A DNA stretch of 64,000 bases, taken from positions 186 to 64,185 of the forward strand of contig CANQEU010000004.1 in assembly GCA_947595635.1 (NCBI GenBank), given 5' to 3'. The position numbers were made by a program, and so were the translations under genes. Positions 20,151 through 64,000 of the stretch are shown one piece after another. Positions within the stretch are counted from its first letter, which is position 1; each line of letters opens with the position of its first letter. The notes beneath the pieces are model-generated. The model was not told the origin of the DNA, made no database searches, and was given only the letters and a program-made list of their open reading frames with translations. Source of the DNA: an uncultured Clostridia bacterium (GTDB lineage Bacteria; Bacillota; Clostridia; Oscillospirales; Acutalibacteraceae).

Positions 20151-20181
20151 GAGCTTGTAAATAAGCCTGTTTTTTATATCG

Positions 20182-20290
20182 TTGACCGCAGGCGGACTGT
20201 GACCGCAGCATTGCCGCCTTGCGTCGGCAATGCTGCTGCTTTAAAATTGGATTTTAAACGGGGGGAGCTGACGCTCCCCCGTAAACCCCC
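20182..20290 (+). repeat. Mosaic palindromic repeat locus R1 (modules B+D)
   Basis: 12-bp hairpin gcagcattgccg/cggcaatgctgc, then ggggggagc-tgac-gctccccc; homologous to the loci at 28.8, 57.2 and 63.7 kb. Confidence 0.9.
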
Positions 20291-20381
20291 ACCTGCTTGC
20301 TCAAGGATTTATTTTATAATCCCCTTTACGGGCGTATAAGCTAAATCAGGCAAAATTTCTTGTGACGGAATTTGGTGTATT

Positions 20382-21326
20382 ATGAGAGAAATAATTATAA
20401 GCAAAAACGATTCGGGACAGCGGCTTGACAAGTTTTTAAGCAAGCGCTTTACTACAATGCCAAAATCAATGATGTATATGTATATTCGCAAAAAATGCGT
20501 CAAGATAAACGGCAAAAAGCCGGATATAAGCACTATTCTGCACGAGGGAGATGTGCTTAAGCTTTTTATAAAGGACGAATTTTTCGACGCTGAGCCGAAA
20601 AGAAAATCCTATGATTTCATAAAAGCGCCTGCCACGCTCGATATTGTCTACGAGGACAAAAACATAATTATCATAAACAAAAAACAGGGCGTTATAGTGC
20701 ATCCAGACGAATCGTATCACTTTGACAGTCTTGTTTCAAGACTGAAGCATTATCTGTATGACAAGGGCGAATATGACCCCGAAGCCGAGCAAAGCTTTTC
20801 GCCGGCTCTCGCAAACAGGCTTGACCGAAATACCGGCGGTCTTGTTATTGGCGCTAAAAACGCAGAGGCTCTGCGCGATTTGAATTCAAAAATCAAAAGC
20901 AGGGAAATAAAAAAGCTTTATCTCTGCGTTGCTCACGGACGCTTTAAATTAAAAGAGGACGAGCTTATATCATATATGGTAAAGGATGAAAAGCACAACA
21001 GAATAAGTGTTTTTAACGAGCCTGTGCCAAACAGCAAATCAATGATTATGAAATACAGAGTTATCGAGGAATATAACGACTCCTCTCTTTTGGAGGTCGA
21101 GCTTGTAACAGGCAGAACGCATCAAATCAGGGCGCAGCTTGCCCACATAGGGCACCCTCTTTGCGGAGATATAAAATACGGCAAAAGGGAAAACGCCGAC
21201 AGCAATTATAAATATCAGGCTCTGTATGCCTATAAGCTTAAATTCACATTCAGCGGAGAAAGTATTTTAAGCTATTTAAACGGCAGGGAATTTGAGCTAA
21301 AGGATGTTAAATTTATTATGAAATAA
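20382..21326 (+). CDS. RluA-family pseudouridine synthase with S4 domain
   Basis: QRLDKFL S4 domain; NRLDRNTGG catalytic Asp; TGRTHQIR; GDIKYG. Confidence 0.92.
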   Translation: MREIIISKNDSGQRLDKFLSKRFTTMPKSMMYMYIRKKCVKINGKKPDISTILHEGDVLKLFIKDEFFDAEPKRKSYDFIKAPATLDIVYEDKNIIIINKKQGVIVHPDESYHFDSLVSRLKHYLYDKGEYDPEAEQSFSPALANRLDRNTGGLVIGAKNAEALRDLNSKIKSREIKKLYLCVAHGRFKLKEDELISYMVKDEKHNRISVFNEPVPNSKSMIMKYRVIEEYNDSSLLEVELVTGRTHQIRAQLAHIGHPLCGDIKYGKRENADSNYKYQALYAYKLKFTFSGESILSYLNGREFELKDVKFIMK

Positions 21327-28767: not shown

Positions 28768-29202
28768 CCTTGAACCGCAGTCAGCGCCGCTGCGCAGCGG
28801 GACTGCTGCTTAAGTGTTTATTTTTGCAGGAGAAAGTGGGGTTACGGGGGAGCGACAGCTCCCCCGTTTAAAATCCAACTTAAAAGCAGCGGCGTTATCG
28901 GCGCAAGCCGGTCTGCCTGCGGTCATAGAAATATAAAACAAAGTGTTTTTGCTTTGAAAAATAAGATTTATAATTTCACTTTGCCCTCGTGCCGGGCAGG
29001 TTTCTTTAATAAAAAACTTTTTTGATTTTTATTTTCTTAAAATCATTTTTTATTAGCAATAAAACACTATAATTCGCTTGCAATCTTTGGCAGACTTTGG
29101 GGTTGCAAGGGGCTTGCCCCCTTGCATAATAAATAAATATTAAAGCAGCAGCGTTACCGGCGCAAGTCGGTAACGCTGCGGTCATAGTCTGCCTGCGGTC
29201 AA
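28768..29202 (-). repeat. Mosaic palindromic repeat locus R2 (minus-strand order B, C, spacer, B, D, half A)
   Basis: Reverse-complement copies of the modules at 57.4-58.2 and 63.7-64.0 kb. Confidence 0.9.
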
Positions 29203-54036: not shown

Positions 54037-56388
54037 ATGAACAGACATCTTAAAACACTTGAGCTTGATAAAATTTTAAATATGCTTGCAAACGAGAGCG
54101 CAAGCGAGGCTGCCGCCGCACTTGCGCTCGACATAAGGCCGAAGAACTCGCTTTCGGAGGTTATTAAGCTTTTAAAGCAGACCGAGGACGCATACATATT
54201 ATGCGGCAGATTCGGCTCGCCGTCGTTCGGCTCAATAAAGGATATATCAAACCCTGCCGCCAGAGCGGCCGCCGGCGGCACGCTCTCAACGACCGAGCTG
54301 CTTAAAATAGCGGAGCTGCTCAGGGTGGTAAGGGGTGTTAAGCAATGGCGTGAAAATTGCGCCGGCACGGAAAGCGTGCTCGACAGCAAATTCAGCGGAC
54401 TTATTCCAAATAAATTTTTGGAGGAAGCCATAAGCGGAGCGATAATCTCCGAGGACGAAATTTCAGACAAGGCGTCCCCCACCCTAAGCGATATACGCCG
54501 AAAAATGAAAAACGCCTCTCTAAAGGCAAGAGATATTCTCAACAACCTGATACATTCCTCCTCATATAAAAAATATTTGCAGGACGCAATTGTTACAATA
54601 CGCGACGGGCGCTATGTAGTGCCGGTAAAAGCCGAATGCCGAAGCAATGTAAGCGGTCTTGTTCACGACACGTCGGCAAGCGGCTCAACAATATTTATAG
54701 AGCCTATGGGAGTTGTTGAGGCAAACAACGAAATAAAGGTATTAAAATCAAAAGAGGAAACGGAAATTGAGCGTATACTGTCGTCCCTGTCAGCAAATGC
54801 AGGGGCTTTTGCAAAGCAGCTTACGGATAATTACGGACTGCTTATAGAGCTTGACCTTATTTTTGCAAAAGCGTCGCTTGCGTACAAGCTTAAGGCTTCA
54901 ATGCCTGTAATGAACGACAAGGGCATAATAGATTTAAAGCAGGCAAGGCATCCGCTTATAGACAGCAGTTGTGTTGTTCCAATCAACATAAGGCTCGGCG
55001 GCGAATTTTCCACCCTTGTAATAACCGGTCCCAACACCGGCGGAAAAACCGTTACGCTTAAAACAATTGGTCTTTTAACCGTTATGGCCATGTGCGGACT
55101 TATGGTTCCTGCCGGCGACAACAGCAGATTATCGGTATTTGAGCATATCCTTGCGGATATTGGAGATGAACAGAGCATTGAGCAGAGTCTTTCAACATTT
55201 TCCGCACATATGACAAATATATCAAACATATTAAAAACAGCAGACGATAAAAGCCTTGCCCTTATAGACGAGCTTGGAGCAGGCACCGACCCTGTAGAGG
55301 GCGCCGCTCTTGCAACGGCTATACTTGAAAAGCTTGCCTCTGCAGGCACTGTTACGGCGGCTACAACTCACTATGCCGAGCTGAAGGCGTTTGCTCTGAA
55401 CACTCCCGGTGTTGAAAACGCCTGCTGCGAGTTTGACATCGCGACTCTAAGACCTACCTACAAGCTTTCAATCGGGGTTCCGGGGCGTTCTAACGCATTT
55501 GCGATTTCAAAAAAGCTTGGGATAGACAATGAAATAATCGAGCGATCAAAAAGACTTGTTTCACGCGATGACAGAAAATTTGAAAGCGTTGTCAGAAATC
55601 TTGAAAAAAAGCGGCAGGAGCTTGAGCAGCAGCTTAACGCGGCCGAGGAAAAGGCGCTGCTTGCACAAAAGGCAATCGAGGACGCCGAGAAAAAGGCGTT
55701 AAAAATCAGGCAGCAAAGCGAAGCGGAAATACAGCGTGCGAGAGAAGAGGCGGCGCAGATAGTATCAAGGACAAGAGCCGCCGCTTACGGAATTATGGAA
55801 AGCGTTGAAAAGGCACAGAGAGAAAAGAGGCTGTCAGACGAAGATAAATTGAAGCTTAAAGCACAAATTAAAAATATAGAAAACACAGCAGACCCGATTG
55901 CAAAAGCAAAGAACGATGATTATAAGCCTCCGAGAAAGCTTAAGCAGGGCGACACCGTATTAATATTCGATATTGACAAAAAGGCGACTGTGCTTGAGCT
56001 TGACCCCGACGGAAAAACGGCGCTTGTTCAGGCAGGCATTATTAAAACAAGAGTCAGCATAAACAATTTAAGGCTGCTTGACAGTCAAAGCAAGGACAAG
56101 CCTAAACCATCTCACCGCAGTGTAACAAGGCAGACTGACGTAAGGGCTGTTACTGAGGTTGATTTGAGGGGTATGACTGCCACAGAGGCGATTATGGAGC
56201 TTGAAAACGCAATCGACTCCGCAATTCTGTCGGGAATAAACCAGATAACAATAATACACGGCAAGGGCACCGGCGTTCTTCGGCGAGAGGTTCATTCCTT
56301 CCTAAAGGGCTGTAGGACTGTAAAGGACTACAGGCTCGGAGTTTACGGCGAGGGCGAAAGCGGAGTTACGATAGCAACATTAAAATAA
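54037..56388 (+). CDS. mutS2: MutS2 (endonuclease / ribosome rescue factor)
   Basis: TGPNTGGKT, QSLSTFS, DELGAGTDP, coiled coil, C-terminal Smr domain (IHGKGTG). Confidence 0.96.
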   Translation: MNRHLKTLELDKILNMLANESASEAAAALALDIRPKNSLSEVIKLLKQTEDAYILCGRFGSPSFGSIKDISNPAARAAAGGTLSTTELLKIAELLRVVRGVKQWRENCAGTESVLDSKFSGLIPNKFLEEAISGAIISEDEISDKASPTLSDIRRKMKNASLKARDILNNLIHSSSYKKYLQDAIVTIRDGRYVVPVKAECRSNVSGLVHDTSASGSTIFIEPMGVVEANNEIKVLKSKEETEIERILSSLSANAGAFAKQLTDNYGLLIELDLIFAKASLAYKLKASMPVMNDKGIIDLKQARHPLIDSSCVVPINIRLGGEFSTLVITGPNTGGKTVTLKTIGLLTVMAMCGLMVPAGDNSRLSVFEHILADIGDEQSIEQSLSTFSAHMTNISNILKTADDKSLALIDELGAGTDPVEGAALATAILEKLASAGTVTAATTHYAELKAFALNTPGVENACCEFDIATLRPTYKLSIGVPGRSNAFAISKKLGIDNEIIERSKRLVSRDDRKFESVVRNLEKKRQELEQQLNAAEEKALLAQKAIEDAEKKALKIRQQSEAEIQRAREEAAQIVSRTRAAAYGIMESVEKAQREKRLSDEDKLKLKAQIKNIENTADPIAKAKNDDYKPPRKLKQGDTVLIFDIDKKATVLELDPDGKTALVQAGIIKTRVSINNLRLLDSQSKDKPKPSHRSVTRQTDVRAVTEVDLRGMTATEAIMELENAIDSAILSGINQITIIHGKGTGVLRREVHSFLKGCRTVKDYRLGVYGEGESGVTIATLK

Positions 56389-56403
56389 GTAAGGGGAATA
56401 ATA

Positions 56404-57183
56404 ATGAATAAAAATGTCACAAACGAAATCGAAGTAAACGATTATGACGACAGCTTTACACAGGACGCTCCTAAGAAGGATAAAAAGGGACACGGAATAA
56501 GAACAGCCGTTATAATTATTTTATGCGCGCTCCTGCTTATAGCGGCAGGCGTAATAACCGTTGCCGTGCTTGCTTTTCAAACGCCAAACAGCGATAAATT
56601 CGGAGCGTCGCCGGATAACGGGGCTATAATGAATGTTATCTATGCGGCGATAAAGGACGAGGACGCGGAAATAACTAATACTGAGCTTAACTCATTGCTT
56701 ACATATTTCATCAAGGGCGATAAGGACGACGACGTAAAACCGTTAAGCGAAAATTCAAGAATAAAGGACGCTGCAATTTATATACACAAGGACAAGCCGA
56801 GCGAGCTTTACGCTATGGTAGAAATTAATAATCACACCTTTGAAATATCGGCAGAGCTTAACATTGAACCGGAGATAATCAAAAATGAATTCAAACTGAC
56901 TGTTACCTCGGCAAAAATCGGGAATCTTCCAATTGCGCCTGACTTGCTTATGAACTACGCTTTCAGCGACGATATTTCTAATGGTATATCGGATTACATA
57001 CGCCGCGACGGAAATGACTTATACATAAAATCACGCTACCAATATGAAATTATGGGGCAGACAATTAAGTTTTCCGTAAAGAGCTTTGAACCGCTAAAGG
57101 ACGGAATAAAGCTTAAAACGACAAGCGCGGCTGACATACTTCTCGGGTCAATAAGCTCGTGGCTTTCTTCATTTTTCCAATAA
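56404..57183 (+). CDS. Hypothetical single-TM membrane-anchored protein
   Basis: Acidic/basic N-terminus, TM at about aa 33-58, beta-rich outer domain; AGGGG RBS. Confidence 0.75.
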   Translation: MNKNVTNEIEVNDYDDSFTQDAPKKDKKGHGIRTAVIIILCALLLIAAGVITVAVLAFQTPNSDKFGASPDNGAIMNVIYAAIKDEDAEITNTELNSLLTYFIKGDKDDDVKPLSENSRIKDAAIYIHKDKPSELYAMVEINNHTFEISAELNIEPEIIKNEFKLTVTSAKIGNLPIAPDLLMNYAFSDDISNGISDYIRRDGNDLYIKSRYQYEIMGQTIKFSVKSFEPLKDGIKLKTTSAADILLGSISSWLSSFFQ

Positions 57184-57198
57184 ACGGCTTTAATAAAC

Positions 57199-58232
57199 GC
57201 TTAGCGCCGCAGACTTTAGGTCTGCGGCGCTCCGATTCTGTTGATAAACCTATTTTTTGATAAGTTATCACCTGCTGAAGCTTTAAAATTTGGTTTTAAA
57301 CGTGGAATTGAAGCCCACCGTAAATCCTCACTTCCTCTTTAATAGAATTTTTTAGTCTAAATTCGTTCTGCTAAACTAATTTACGGGTTTAAAATATTAT
57401 TTAAGTAAAATTCCCTTGTGCGAGAATGATGAGGTGCAGGAGAAGCGAAGCTTCTACTGCAAAAAATAAAATCTTATGCAGCAGTGCTGACTGCGGTTCA
57501 AGGAACACAAAGACAAAAACACTTTTTGACCGCAGGCAGACCGCCTTGCGGCGACCTGCCTGCTGCTTTATATTTAGTTTATTATGCAAGGGGCTAAACG
57601 CCCCTTGCAACCCCAAAGCCTGCTCAGGGATTGCAAGTAAATAAAAGTTTTAATCTTCTTTCACATATTTGAACGCATAATTAATCTTCCCTCACAGGCA
57701 GAGAGCGCAATGCAACCATTCCAAGGCAAGCAAAAGCTTGAAAATAAATATTCCTTAAACGAGAATGATGAGGTGCAGGAGAAGCGAAGCTTCTCCTGCA
57801 AAAAAAATAAAATCTTAAGCAGCAGTGCTGACTGCGGTTCAAGGACGACACAGTAAATAATATTTTTTTGACGAGGCTCTCGCCGACCGCAGCGTTACCG
57901 ACTTGCACCGGTAACGCTGCTGCTTTAATATTGTGTTATATTAAAGGGGGAGCTGACGCTCCCCCTTTAAATCCCCTTTTTTGTTCGCTCAAAAAATACT
58001 TTGATTTTAATTCATGTTATAAAAGCTTATTTACGGGTATAAAAGCTTAATCAAGCAAAATTCCCTTGTGTGAGAATGATGAGGCGCAGGAGAAGCGAAG
58101 CTTCTACTGCAAAAAATAAAATCTTAAGCAGGAGTCCCGCTGCGCAGCAGTGCTGACTGCGGTTCAAGGATTATATGGACAAAAACTTTTTTACAAGCTG
58201 AGCGCCGCAGACTTTAAGTCTGCGGCGCTCCT
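57199..58232 (+). repeat. Mosaic palindromic repeat locus R3 (E-A-B-C-A-B-D-A-E), about 1 kb, non-coding
   Basis: Module A at 57411-57503, 57751-57844, 58061-58169; B at 57526 and 57885; C at 57583; D at 57941; E at 57203 and 58201. Confidence 0.92.
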
Positions 58233-58251
58233 AATTTTTTTTATAAGCATT

Positions 58252-60738
58252 TTACATTATCGTTTCAAAGGTATACTCACTGCCGTTATAAGAGCATTTA
58301 ACACTGTCGCCTTTTTTTATTCTCTGCTCAAGTATCTGCTGCGACAACGCGTCCTCTATCCTTTGCTGGATGGCTCTGCGCAGCGGTCTTGCGCCGTATG
58401 TCGGGTCATATCCTGCCTTTGCGACGGCAGCTACTGCATCGTCTGTAAATTCAATCTTTATATCCATACTTTCAAGACGACTCTCAAGGCTTTTAAGCAT
58501 ATTGGCGGCGATTTGCTTTATTTCGTCCTCGTTAAGCTTGTTGAATACGATAATATCGTCAACCCTGTTCAAAAATTCCGGACGGAACATTTTTTTAAGC
58601 TCGCCCATTACAAGCTCCTTTACGTCCGCGTTTTCACGCTCGGCGCTCTTTTCCCCGTCCTTGTCCTCAAACGCGAAGCCGAGCCTTCCCGACGCAGAAT
58701 CGGTTATCAGTCTTGCGCCCACGTTTGACGTCATGATGATAATCGTGTTTTTAAAATCTACCACTCTGCCCTGAGAGTCGGTAAGTCTGCCGTCCTCAAG
58801 TATCTGAAGCAGCATATTAAAAACATCAGGATGAGCCTTTTCGATTTCATCAAAGAGTACAACGGAGTACGGGTGACTTCTTACCTTATCGGTAAGCTGA
58901 CCGCCCTCGTCATAGCCGACATATCCCGGAGGAGATCCGACAAGCTTTGAAACCGTGTGCTTTTCCATATATTCTGACATATCAAGGCGTATCATAGCGT
59001 TTTCATCACCGAAAACAGCCTCGGCAAGCGCCTTGCAAAGCTCGGTTTTTCCAACTCCGGTAGGGCCTAAGAATATGAACGAGCCCTGCGGCCTTTTGGG
59101 GTCTTTAAGTCCGACCCTGCCTCTGCGAATTGCCCTTGCAACGCTGTCTACAGCCTCGTTCTGCCCTATTACCCTCTTGTGGAGTATTTCCTCCATATTG
59201 AGGAGTCTTTGGCTTTCCTCCTCTGTCAGCTTTGACACGGGTATGCCGGTCCACTGCGAAACAATATTTGCAATGTCCTCCTCGCTTACGGTTCCGGAAG
59301 AATTATCCGTATTCTGCTTCCACTGCTCTTTTTTCTTTTCAAGCTCTTGCTTCGCTTCGTTTTGTTCATCTCTGAGCTTTGCCGCGCGCTCGAAATCCTG
59401 ACCGTTGATAGCGGCAGATTTTTCCTGCTCAAGTCTGTTTATTTTATCCTCAATTTCCTTCAGGGTATTCGGCTGTGTGTGCGCCTTAAGCCTTACCTTT
59501 GACGCCGCCTCGTCTATAAGATCTATCGCCTTGTCGGGCAAATAACGGTCGGTTATATATCTTGATGAAAGCTCGACCGCCACATTTATCGCCTCATCGG
59601 GAATAGACACCTTATGGTGAGCCTCATACCTGTCGCGCAGACCCTTTAATATCTGCACAGCCTCCTCCGCCGTCGGCTCTCCGACAGTTACGGGCTGGAA
59701 ACGTCTTTCAAGCGCCGCGTCCTTTTCAATGTGCTTTCTATACTCGTTTATCGTTGTTGCGCCTATCACCTGCAAATCTCCCCTTGCAAGCGCAGGCTTA
59801 AGTATATTCGCGGCATCTGCGCTTCCCTCTGCGCTGCCTGCTCCGATTATTGTGTGAAGCTCGTCGATGAAAAGGATTATATTGCCGTCGTTTTTGACCT
59901 CGTCCATAGCGCTCTTGATTCGTTCTTCAAAATCGCCTCTGTATTTTGCTCCGGCGACCATTCCGGTTAAATCAAGCGCAAATACTCTTTTGTCCTTTAG
60001 CAAATCGGGAACGTCGCCGCTTGCAATTCTCAGCGCAAGCCCCTCTGCGACAGCTGTTTTTCCGACTCCGGGTTCACCGATTAGGCACGGGTTGTTCTTT
60101 GTTCTTCTTGAAAGTATCTGAATAACACGCGCAATCTCCTTTTCTCTGCCGATAACCGGGTCTATTTCACCCTTTTTTGCCTTCTCCGTCAAATCCTCAC
60201 CGAACTTTTCAAGCGTTTTTGTTCCGCCTCTGCCTGAATTTCCAGACGGCTTGCCGTCAAAGCCTGAATATCCCTGAGGCTGTTCGGAAGCGTCGGAGGA
60301 AGAATTAAGCTGCTCCGATATGCTGCGGAATATATCATTCGGACGAGCGCCGCAGCCGTAAATGAAGTGTACGGCATAGCTGTCCTCCTCCGAAAGCAAT
60401 GCTATAAGCAAATGCTCGCTGCCGACATAATTATGGTTATAGCGTGCGGCAACCGCAATTGCACCCTGAACAACTCTTTTTGTCCTTGGGGTAAAATCAG
60501 ACGGCGAGAGCGTAGTCCTTGAGCCGGAGCCTATCTGCACCTTTATCTGAGCTTCAACATCCTCCGCACTTATTCCGGCAGCCTCAAGCGCTGTGCTCGC
60601 AACGCTGTTTTCCGTTTTCAGAAGTCCTAAAAGTATGTGCTCTGTTCCGATATAAGTGTGTCCAAGCTCCTCTGCCTTTTCAATGGCAAGATTTAATGTT
60701 TCATTTGCTTTTTGAGTAAATCCTCTGAAATTATACAT
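58252..60738 (-). CDS. clpC: Clp ATPase ClpC
   Basis: Double Clp-N domain, [11 protein letters not shown] middle domain, [23 protein letters not shown]. Confidence 0.97.
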
Positions 60739-60789: not shown

Positions 60790-61821
60790 CTAAAATAATT
60801 CTTTAAGTTCGCGCCTCAAAAGCTCTGCACGCGCAGAATCTCTTTCCTGCGGAGTCATCTCCCTGTTGTTTGAGGTCATCAGAGTTGCAGGCTGTATCTG
60901 CTCGCTCATTCTGTTCAGCAGAGAATAATCCTTGCTTTCGATAAGTCCTGTTACCATTCCTGCCCTTACATTTGACAAAAGCTTCATAGCCTCGTCATTC
61001 GTCATAAGCCTTGCGCTTTTTAAAACAGCCGCGCTTCTGAATATTATATCCTGCATTTCAAGCGTTTTTGAAAGCTCTTCAAGGCTCTTTTCCTCCTGCT
61101 CTATCATCTGCGAAGCTATATTCTTCAGGTTTTCAATAGCCGTATGCTCCGAAATTCCGAGCGTTATCTGATTTGACATCTGATACAGCGAACCTTTTAC
61201 ATCGCTGCCCTCGCCAAATGTTCCTCTAAGCTCCATTCCGAGCTTTGAAAGATTGCCGGCTATTCTTGCTATAGCCCTGTTCTTTTCCGTCGCCGGAAGA
61301 TGGAGCATTAGGGAAGCTCTCATACCTGTGCCGAGATTCGTCGGACACTGAGTTAAATAGCCGAGCTTCTCGTTAAACGCAAAGCCGAGAGCGTCGTCAA
61401 GAAGAGTATCAATGTTATTTGCGGTATTATAAAGCTCGTTTAATGATAATCCGCTGCCAAGCACCTGTATCCTTATGTGATCCTCTTCATTTATCATTAT
61501 GCTTATGGCTTCATCCTCAGACAGCATAAGGTACCTGCCCTTTCTGTCGGAGGCAAACTCAGGACTTATCAAATGCTTTTCAACAAGCGATACAGCCTGA
61601 AGCTGTGTTAGCTCCTCCATTGAAATAAACGAAAAGCTGCCGGCTAAAGTGCTGTTGCTCTCTTCAATCGCCTTTTTTACTCTCAAGGCTATCTCTCTTT
61701 TTTGTTCAAGGCTCGCTCTGTTGGGGAAGGGATAGCTTTTAAGGTTTCTCGCAAGCCGGATTCGAGAGCTTATTACAACGCTTCCGTGCTCTCCGCTTCT
61801 CTCATACCATTTTTCAGCCAT
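60790..61821 (-). CDS. mcsB: Protein arginine kinase McsB
   Basis: SSRIRLARN, NEEDHIR, CPTNLGTG. Confidence 0.95.
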   Translation of the reverse strand: MAEKWYERSGEHGSVVISSRIRLARNLKSYPFPNRASLEQKREIALRVKKAIEESNSTLAGSFSFISMEELTQLQAVSLVEKHLISPEFASDRKGRYLMLSEDEAISIMINEEDHIRIQVLGSGLSLNELYNTANNIDTLLDDALGFAFNEKLGYLTQCPTNLGTGMRASLMLHLPATEKNRAIARIAGNLSKLGMELRGTFGEGSDVKGSLYQMSNQITLGISEHTAIENLKNIASQMIEQEEKSLEELSKTLEMQDIIFRSAAVLKSARLMTNDEAMKLLSNVRAGMVTGLIESKDYSLLNRMSEQIQPATLMTSNNREMTPQERDSARAELLRRELKELF

Positions 61822-62314
61822 TCTTACTCTCTCCCTTCAGCTCGTTAATTTTATCTCTGAGCTCAGCCGCTTTTTCAAATTCCTGACGCGCTATAGCCTC
61901 GTTTAACTGCTCCTGCATTGATTCAAGCTCGTTGACTATTGCAAGCTGTCTGCCGGAGCTTGACGGGAATTTTCCGTTATGGCGTGTGTTCCCGTGAATT
62001 TTTTTGATAGACGGCAGCAGCTCCTCGTAAAAGGTTTCATAGCAGTCGGGACAGCCGACCATACCTCTCTTTGCTATCTCGGAAAACGACGCGCCGCAGC
62101 TTTTGCACCTTGTGGCGCTTGTTCTTGATGGAAGTCCGCCGCCGAAAAAGCTGCCGAGCAGACTGTTCCATTCGCTTTCAAAATTTGAAAACAGGCTTGT
62201 GTAGCCCATTTTTTTTGCGCATTCTGGGCAAAGGTCATATTCCTCTATCCTGCCGTTTACCACTCTTTTAATATGTGTTGTGGCCTCGTTTTTCTTACAT
62301 GATTGACATAACAT
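61814..62314 (-). CDS. mcsA: McsB activator McsA
   Basis: CQSC..CPEC, CKSC..CPDC, C-terminal UVR motif (EFEKAAELRD). Confidence 0.95.
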   Translation of the reverse strand: MLCQSCKKNEATTHIKRVVNGRIEEYDLCPECAKKMGYTSLFSNFESEWNSLLGSFFGGGLPSRTSATRCKSCGASFSEIAKRGMVGCPDCYETFYEELLPSIKKIHGNTRHNGKFPSSSGRQLAIVNELESMQEQLNEAIARQEFEKAAELRDKINELKGESKNG

Positions 62315-62336: not shown

Positions 62337-62786
62337 TTAAATTTGGGTCAAAAGCATATTTTTTACAATTGCGGCTCTTACCGCACTGCTCAGCTTTTTA
62401 GGCAAGCCGGCAAAGTTTCTCTCAGACACTGCCGCGGATATCAACTCCGCGCATTCGTCATCAATAGCGCCTGCAACCCGCAGATTGTCAAGCATCAGCC
62501 TTGCGTCATTAAAATCGAGCTCCTTGCCGATTGAATTAACAATATGCATAAGCACCGAGTCTTTATCGGTGTGGATCCTTGTTATTCTGATAAATCCTCC
62601 GCCGCCTCTTCTGCTTTCAACAATATATCCCTGTTCGGGCGTAAAGCGAGAGGTAAGCACATAATTTATCTGACTTGGTACGCAGCCCAAAGAATCCGCA
62701 AGCTCGTTTCTCTTTATTTCGGCATTGCCGCCGCTTTCATCAAGCATATTAAGAATATAGCTTGCAACCAGATCCGATATTCTCAT
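62337..62786 (-). CDS. ctsR: Class III heat-shock repressor CtsR
   Basis: CVPSQINYVLTSRFT..ESRRGGGGFIRI. Confidence 0.96.
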   Translation of the reverse strand: MRISDLVASYILNMLDESGGNAEIKRNELADSLGCVPSQINYVLTSRFTPEQGYIVESRRGGGGFIRITRIHTDKDSVLMHIVNSIGKELDFNDARLMLDNLRVAGAIDDECAELISAAVSERNFAGLPKKLSSAVRAAIVKNMLLTQI

Positions 62787-63604: not shown

Positions 63605-63637
63605 CGCGGCAAGCCCTTGTGGCTTGCCGCGATTTTT
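63605..63637 (+). terminator. Terminator after tRNA-Gln
   Basis: tcgcggcaagcc/ggcttgccgcga followed by ttttt. Confidence 0.75.
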
Positions 63638-63678
63638 ATGCAAAATCGCGGCGTTCGCCTTTCGGGCTGCCGCTCTTT

Positions 63679-64000
63679 TTGACCGCAGCGTTACCGCCTT
63701 GCGCCGGTAACGCTGCTGCTTTATATTAGTTTGTTATGCAAGGGGCTAAACGCCCCTTGCAACCCCAAAGCCTGCTCACGGATTGCAAGCAAATACTTGA
63801 AAGTAAATATCCCTTAAGCGAGAATGATGAGGTGCAGGAGAAGCGAAGCTTCTCCTGCAAAAAATAAACCCTTAAGCAGCAGTTCCGCTGCGCAGCGGCG
63901 CTGACTGCGGTTCAAGGATTACATAAGAAAAAAATTTTATTAGTTCTCGCCTTGCGCCGGTAACGCTGCTTCTTTAAAATTAAGTTTTATACGGGGGGAG
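63679..64000 (+). repeat. Mosaic palindromic repeat locus R4 (B-C-A-half B-D), running off the window end
   Basis: B 63679-63722, C 63735-63789, A 63810-63917, partial B 63949-63975, D starting at 63991. Confidence 0.9.

Follow-up and report, generated by a model that had tools for sequence, protein, structure and literature searches.

How did about a kilobase of dispersed hairpin repeats come to lie between two copies of a single palindrome, in the gap between two converging genes? The question is raised by one locus in the 64-kb window, that is, the whole stretch of DNA analyzed here. A preliminary description of this locus proposed that a circular intermediate had integrated at an ancestral single palindrome, and that the resulting cassette could excise again through recombination between the two flanking copies. 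The analysis reported here favors a different history. The palindrome, designated E, is probably a local bidirectional terminator and the block a derived insertion that duplicated the whole hairpin, with the filled and empty states exchanged as alleles by homologous recombination and no autonomous cassette involved.

The genes and modules that make up the locus are collected in Table 1. The product of the 259-aa gene gives zero matches in Pfam, and a homologue 41% identical to this protein carries a faint DUF2140 match. Little room is left at either edge of the block, with 15 nt separating the stop codon of the 259-aa gene from the start of E1, the left copy of the palindrome, and 20 nt separating the end of E2, the right copy, from the stop codon of clpC. 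Read from left to right, the locus runs E1 - F - A - B - C - A - B - D - A - E2. Given this order, E holds the slot that is taken by the B hairpin inside the array.

Table 1. Coordinates of genes, palindrome copies and repeat modules at the locus (window positions).
Feature	Position	Strand	Remarks
259-aa gene	56404..57183	+	downstream of mutS2; convergent with clpC
E1, left terminator palindrome copy	57199..57244	.	stem 57203-57215 / 57219-57231
Module F, decayed B-tail/D-type, left end of block	57239..57355	+	dispersed module
Module A, unit 1	57373..57527	+	leader, core with UGAUGA...CUGA, A/T-rich tail
B hairpin and C hairpin modules, unit 2	57527..57640	+	
Module A, unit 2	57712..57868	+	
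B hairpin and D hairpin modules, unit 3	57885..57975	+	
Module A, unit 3	58023..58193	+	tail abuts E2
E2, right terminator palindrome copy	58197..58240	.	stem 58200-58230, 14 pairs; original T-tract
clpC	58252..60738	-	last gene of ctsR-mcsA-mcsB-clpC
mcsB	60790-61821		same operon as clpC
mcsA	61814-62314		same operon as clpC
ctsR	62337-62786		same operon as clpC

E is a 35-nt palindrome (gctKagcgccgcagactttaRgtctgcggcgctcc). A repeat search recovers it twice, at 57199-57233 and 58197-58231, with the start-to-start distance of 998 bp originally described. The two copies differ at 2 of their 35 positions, namely the base before the stem (T in E1, G in E2) and one loop base (G and A, respectively). 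Only these two occurrences of the 27-nt core, GCGCCGCAGACTTTARGTCTGCGGCGC, are found in the 64 kb, compared with 0 expected from 100 shuffles. When the contigs of four whole metagenomes were aligned to E alone, each run returned 1-4 contigs, all consistent with this locus, and E is therefore not a dispersed repeat. Its uniqueness is based on the 64-kb window and these metagenome contigs; none was found in viral contigs.

Several properties of E point to a role in transcription termination. The stem is 13-15 bp long and GC-rich, with an A-tract and a T-tract at its sides, and a terminator scan calls E2 as a terminator with a T8 tract. In the single-copy (empty) allele described below, the 15-bp stem has folding energies of -37 and -35 kcal/mol, one for each strand (z ≈ -7), and on either strand a U-rich tract follows the hairpin, UUAUUUUGCUUUU in one case and GAUUUUAUUAAAG in the other. 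The hallmarks of an intrinsic terminator, namely a stable stem, a U-tract and a position 15-20 nt from the stop codon of each gene, are thus present on both strands. On the basis of its sequence and folding, E is read as a putative native bidirectional intrinsic terminator common to the DUF2140-like gene and to ctsR-mcsA-mcsB-clpC.

The preliminary description predicted that related strains would carry an empty site with a single E. An exact-protein look-up of the 259-aa gene leads to such a site in L001, a 2.9-kb rabbit-gut contig whose flanks match the window at 98.9% (left) and 98.1% (right) identity and whose stop codons are separated by a 72-nt spacer containing one E. Contigs of two samples likewise skip from 57197 to 58200 at flank depth. 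The block is wholly absent from L001, X1 and X2, and so shows the presence/absence polymorphism of BIME-type repeats. The empty allele was observed in Logan contigs from a single study, in two of its samples, and the strain comparisons rely on metagenome contigs throughout. The reading of E as a dispersed repeat that has no empty site, which would have spoken against the preliminary description, thus disagrees with the data on both counts, as E occurs only at this locus and an empty site was found. The filled allele was assembled independently as L006, a 5.7-kb ENA contig that includes both genes and the whole block and is colinear with the window at 96.6% identity. Six shorter contigs (L007-L012) run through E1 into the block.

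Palindromes and repeats invite misassembly, and either the filled or the empty form might in principle be a mis-join at one of them. Fold-back chimeras do occur in these assemblies. The contig L007 (ENA ERZ27059539 NODE_10778, 1-2940) is an inverted duplication whose bases 1-1474 repeat 1467-2940 in reverse complement; the turning point corresponds to window position 57411, immediately ahead of the module A core, and the contig represents an assembler artefact at these repeats. The filled form, however, is spanned both by the independent ENA contig and by Logan contigs, and the empty form appears in two runs, at the depth of its flanks, with its own variant of E and with no other E-bearing contig in that run. 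Moreover, E1 and E2 have no 31-mer in common, and a k=31 graph therefore has no way of joining them. We regard an assembly artefact as exceedingly improbable.

The extent of the duplication can be read from the sequences beside the two cores. According to the preliminary description, both copies are followed by similar T-rich tails ending in ataa. In a permutation test, the resemblance extends ~5 nt leftward from the core and ~11 nt rightward, and beyond these limits it does not rise above the chance level of AT-rich DNA. The part above chance consists of GCTKA on the left and TCYGATTTTGC on the right, seen most clearly in strain L006. Because the similarity is limited to these ~5 and ~11 nt, the duplicated unit measures ~41-45 bp and corresponds to an extended palindrome; the foot TCCGATTCTG at E1 is part of it. 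The sequence from ~57239 onward belongs to module F, which looks unique inside the window yet is dispersed, with at least seven contigs at 85-90% identity in the metagenome of the empty-site strain. There is therefore no duplicated spacer after E1. Duplication of the whole 72-nt spacer is ruled out by the permutation test together with the dispersed nature of 57239-57355. Several copies of module F start directly 3' of different locus-specific hairpins. Between the window and L006, the 20-30 nt beside the E stems (57231-57262 and 58229-58255) differ by ~18%, and the flanking genes by ~2%.

The DNA between the two palindromes, ~950 bp, is composed of three units (F-A, B-C-A and B-D-A) of the genome's own dispersed modular repeat. 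A repeat search finds module A recurring at spacings of 339 and 311 bp, in agreement with the preliminary description, and the modules recur in differing orders at 20.2, 28.7-29.2 (opposite strand), 57.2-58.2 and 63.65-64.0 kb. Summed contig depth reaches 100-1800 for the inner modules, compared with 5-11 for the flanks. High copy number, extragenic location and modular combinations of hairpins place the block among BIME/REP-type repeats, with units that are here in direct orientation and a sequence that is not REP-like. At the other three mosaic loci of the window (20.2, 28.7-29.2 and 63.65-64.0 kb), neither E nor any duplicated local hairpin bounding the repeats was found, and hairpin duplication is therefore not a general signature of this repeat family.

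The full copies of module A (57422-57504, 57761-57845, 58072-58170 and 63820-63918) all keep AAUGAUGA and CUGA, a box C/D-like arrangement, and all contain an internal hairpin of 11-12 bp. Their minimum free energy folds vary, with an outer CCUU/AAGG pairing closed in some copies only. Searches against Rfam 15 give best matches far under threshold for 56000-59500, and two tRNAs alone pass in the window. Nothing similar to the block was found in plasmids, phages or viral contigs. A scan of the module A motif pair (the C...D pattern) against the GTDB species representatives (185,579 genomes) and JGI metagenomes returned chance matches only, in coding DNA of unrelated organisms; judged by this motif-pair scan, the repeat family appears to be restricted to this lineage.

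Strains also differ inside the block, where the window and L006 are distinguished by indels of 1, 15 and 16 nt and by patchy conversion between units. At 57529 and 57818, a 15-nt (CGATGCTCTCGCCTG) and a 16-nt (GCAGCAGTCCCACTGC) sub-module are carried by one strain and missing from the other. These sub-modules match those of neighboring units, and in patches the tail of one unit resembles that of another, which indicates conversion between units. Since the indels between strains (1 nt and 16 nt) break their frames, the 60-75-aa ORFs of the block were ruled out as protein-coding, and the block is considered non-coding. Variation is seen at the other mosaics as well. In the 20.2-kb mosaic (20178-20260), the B module is replaced in the empty-site strain X1 by 13 nt (TTAGATTTTCAAC), and 20327-20526, which comprises a remnant A leader and the 5' end of the next gene, is covered by no run at ≥93% identity. 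The 28.7-29.2-kb mosaic is filled in all strains; within it, the 86-nt AT-rich spacer at 28940-29027 is replaced by 5 nt (GAGAA) in X1 and X3. As for the 63.65-kb mosaic and its right end, contigs from other strains stop at the tRNA.

These results bear directly on the idea that the block is a circular element of ~1 kb with an E-like att site, integrated site-specifically at E by a recombinase encoded elsewhere and able to leave by E x E excision. The block is indeed bounded by direct repeats of a palindrome with arms of 11-13 bp around a 3-5-nt centre, and an empty site with a single E is known. The base preceding the stem is also swapped between the two copies (T/G in the window, G/T in L006), which is compatible with exchange between them. 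However, no recombinase gene lies in the block. Neither the remainder of the window, nor other places in the four metagenomes, nor viral contigs contain E, so that no donor att site is seen, and the block matches nothing in plasmids or phages. The remaining mosaic loci have no such boundaries, and at its left foot the empty allele departs from the predicted recombination product. With no terminal inverted repeats detected at the block ends by repeat search and no second E-like site, the integration of a circular intermediate is not supported, and we judge it distinctly unlikely.

Defined classes of mobile element were rejected on related grounds. An att-bounded site-specific integrative element is at odds with a block that has no recombinase, with the lack of any other E and with an empty site that differs at its left foot from the attL x attR product. 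An integron gene cassette is excluded by an E devoid of GTTRRRY cores, by the lack of a conserved ORF in the block and by the finding of no integrase gene among the flanking genes examined. A MITE would have terminal inverted repeats, and the duplication of ~41-45 bp spanning the whole palindrome contrasts with the 2-14 bp expected for such an element.

Two outgroups from two genera, Ruminococcus sp. zg-924 (L005) and the Logan contig L020 (~40% protein identity), shed light on the direction of change. Both keep the gene order, with recO-mutS2-gene converging upon clpC-mcsB-mcsA, and their spacers of 154 and 119 nt each hold one unrelated hairpin and zero repeat modules. From these short spacers with a single hairpin, it follows that a spacer with one terminator is the older arrangement. 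The proposal that the ancestral site had a single hairpin, serving as the terminator of the convergent genes, thus gains support from the outgroups and from the single-E sites within the species. We infer that the 1-kb block is a derived insertion relative to these outgroups.

Inside the species, the final 1.1 kb of left flank is the same in the window and L001, with 0 differences. On the right, the flanks diverge by 1.85%, and the three haplotypes (window, L001 and L006) are all equally far from one another. The filled allele occurs in two haplotypes ~2% apart. The left stem foot reads ATCGGA in the empty allele versus CGCTKA in both filled alleles, and the loop of E reads TTAAA versus TTTAR. 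Recombination between the E1 and E2 of either sequenced filled allele would thus not simply yield the empty allele, whose left foot departs at 5-6 bases, and no simple derivation leads from one state to the other in either direction.

It is possible, although we lean against it, that the filled state is ancestral inside the species and that the single-E allele arose later by precise deletion between the E copies and spread by homologous recombination. The colinear content of two filled haplotypes that have diverged by ~2% would agree with this sequence of events, as would the 1.1-kb identity of the empty strain's left flank to the window and the agreement of the direct repeats at 33 of 35 bases. 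The foot and loop peculiar to the empty allele argue against it, as does a right flank that lies as far from the window as does L006. Taken together, the private foot and loop and the distant right flank are more in line with a separate allele lineage than with a recent deletion. The pattern as a whole is better explained by homologous recombination that exchanged alleles and had a breakpoint at E than by a fresh E1 x E2 deletion.

The preferred history, in which the block is a derived insertion that duplicated a local terminator, would begin when repeat DNA entered beside the terminator, at its 3' foot, and the palindrome was copied to the far side. Two routes can be envisaged. An extruded cruciform could be cut in a staggered manner at its two feet and then filled in. 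Alternatively, a replication fork stalled on a hairpin of -30 to -37 kcal/mol could switch template, copy repeat DNA from another locus and then re-copy E. The mechanism of insertion, whether by cruciform cuts or by template switch, is one that we purely infer. Because the second copy of E closes the block, each of the convergent genes would keep a terminator. The filled and empty states would then persist as alleles that are exchanged when the flanks recombine homologously, with E as a preferred breakpoint, and the block might occasionally be lost by E x E recombination.

A variant of this history divides it into two steps, with the terminator first duplicated in tandem and the repeat units gathered later between its copies. 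The placement of module F elsewhere, directly after unrelated locus-specific hairpins, would be in keeping with such an order, and a tandem of similar terminator-like hairpins does lie just before a mosaic, following tRNA-Gln. On the other hand, an E-E allele free of the block was not seen, and the last A tail comes within 5-7 nt of E2, a tight hairpin-element-hairpin layout that recurs at the E. coli site discussed below. We consider the two-step order unlikely. The tandem pair that follows tRNA-Gln (63605-63681) consists of CGCGGCAAGCC..GGCTTGCCGCG plus T5 and then CGCGGCGTTCGCC..GGGCTGCCGC plus T5, directly before the mosaic that leaves the window, and may be a second terminator duplication beside these repeats.

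The closest parallel comes from the mltA-tcdA intergenic region of E. coli K-12, in which a REP doublet (BIME-1) lies between one hairpin (GGGTGAGGGGTAACCTCAC...) and another (GGGTGAGGGATAACCTCGCCC) followed by T5. The filled form is present in 2752 of 5426 complete genomes; the other alleles among those listed are ~160 bp shorter, and an empty strain carries one perfect hairpin with T5. At both sites, a dispersed, modular and hairpin-rich intergenic repeat located 3' of genes varies between strains and stands between two local terminator hairpins, of which one is present when the site is empty. The two repeats nevertheless have zero sequence similarity, and the units described here run in direct rather than alternating orientation. 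They are also built from longer modules, in units of ~310-340 bp with a ~100-nt A module carrying UGAUGA/CUGA, and their host is a rabbit-gut, Ruminococcus-like bacterium of the Clostridia type.

Other systems resemble the locus in part. In Neisseria, minimal mobile elements and intergenic mosaic elements consist of alternative contents between conserved genes that are swapped by homologous recombination in the flanks, with arrays that are repeat mosaics. The present locus shares the alternative contents between conserved genes, the exchange through flanks and the repeat-mosaic arrays, but its contents are non-coding repeats, not genes, and its boundary is a duplicated terminator. Unlike in the Neisserial case, we know of no natural transformation in this organism. 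Pneumococcal BOX (boxA-boxB(n)-boxC) is likewise a modular intergenic repeat of a Firmicute with a variable number of units and no transposase of its own; its modules are different, and the literature searched yielded no description of a whole-terminator duplication for BOX. Integron cassettes and Xer-dependent dif modules are similar in that a short block lies between directly repeated palindromic sites. E, in contrast, is a perfect GC-rich terminator palindrome confined to one locus, and neither an integrase, attC-like asymmetry, a cargo gene nor a second site accompanies it. More generally, no description of a whole-terminator duplication as an insertion footprint was found in the literature searched.

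BIME-like mosaic repeats are of a known kind, and the main point of interest is the whole-hairpin footprint common to this locus and the E. coli site. The mechanism by which REP and BIME sequences are disseminated has been called "a central, but unresolved issue" (REPIN paper, PMC3116915), and cleanly separated pairs of filled and empty alleles, in which the footprint is defined, provide the raw material for solving how such elements insert. The locus supplies a filled/empty pair of this sort in an uncultured Firmicute, with the same footprint as at E. coli mltA-tcdA. As a tentative and rather doubtful generalization, duplication of a whole terminator palindrome could be the insertion footprint of REP/BIME-like repeats in distant phyla, as represented by the Clostridia-type family described here and by E. 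coli BIME-1 at mltA. If this were true, these elements would use the 3' foot of intrinsic terminators as their point of entry, and the structure itself would direct the event, for instance through cuts at both feet of a cruciform or a template switch at a fork; a classical transposase reaction would not be involved. For the organism itself, the locus shows both convergent genes keeping a terminator after the insertion. It also marks out strong palindromic terminators as places where recombination breakpoints fall.
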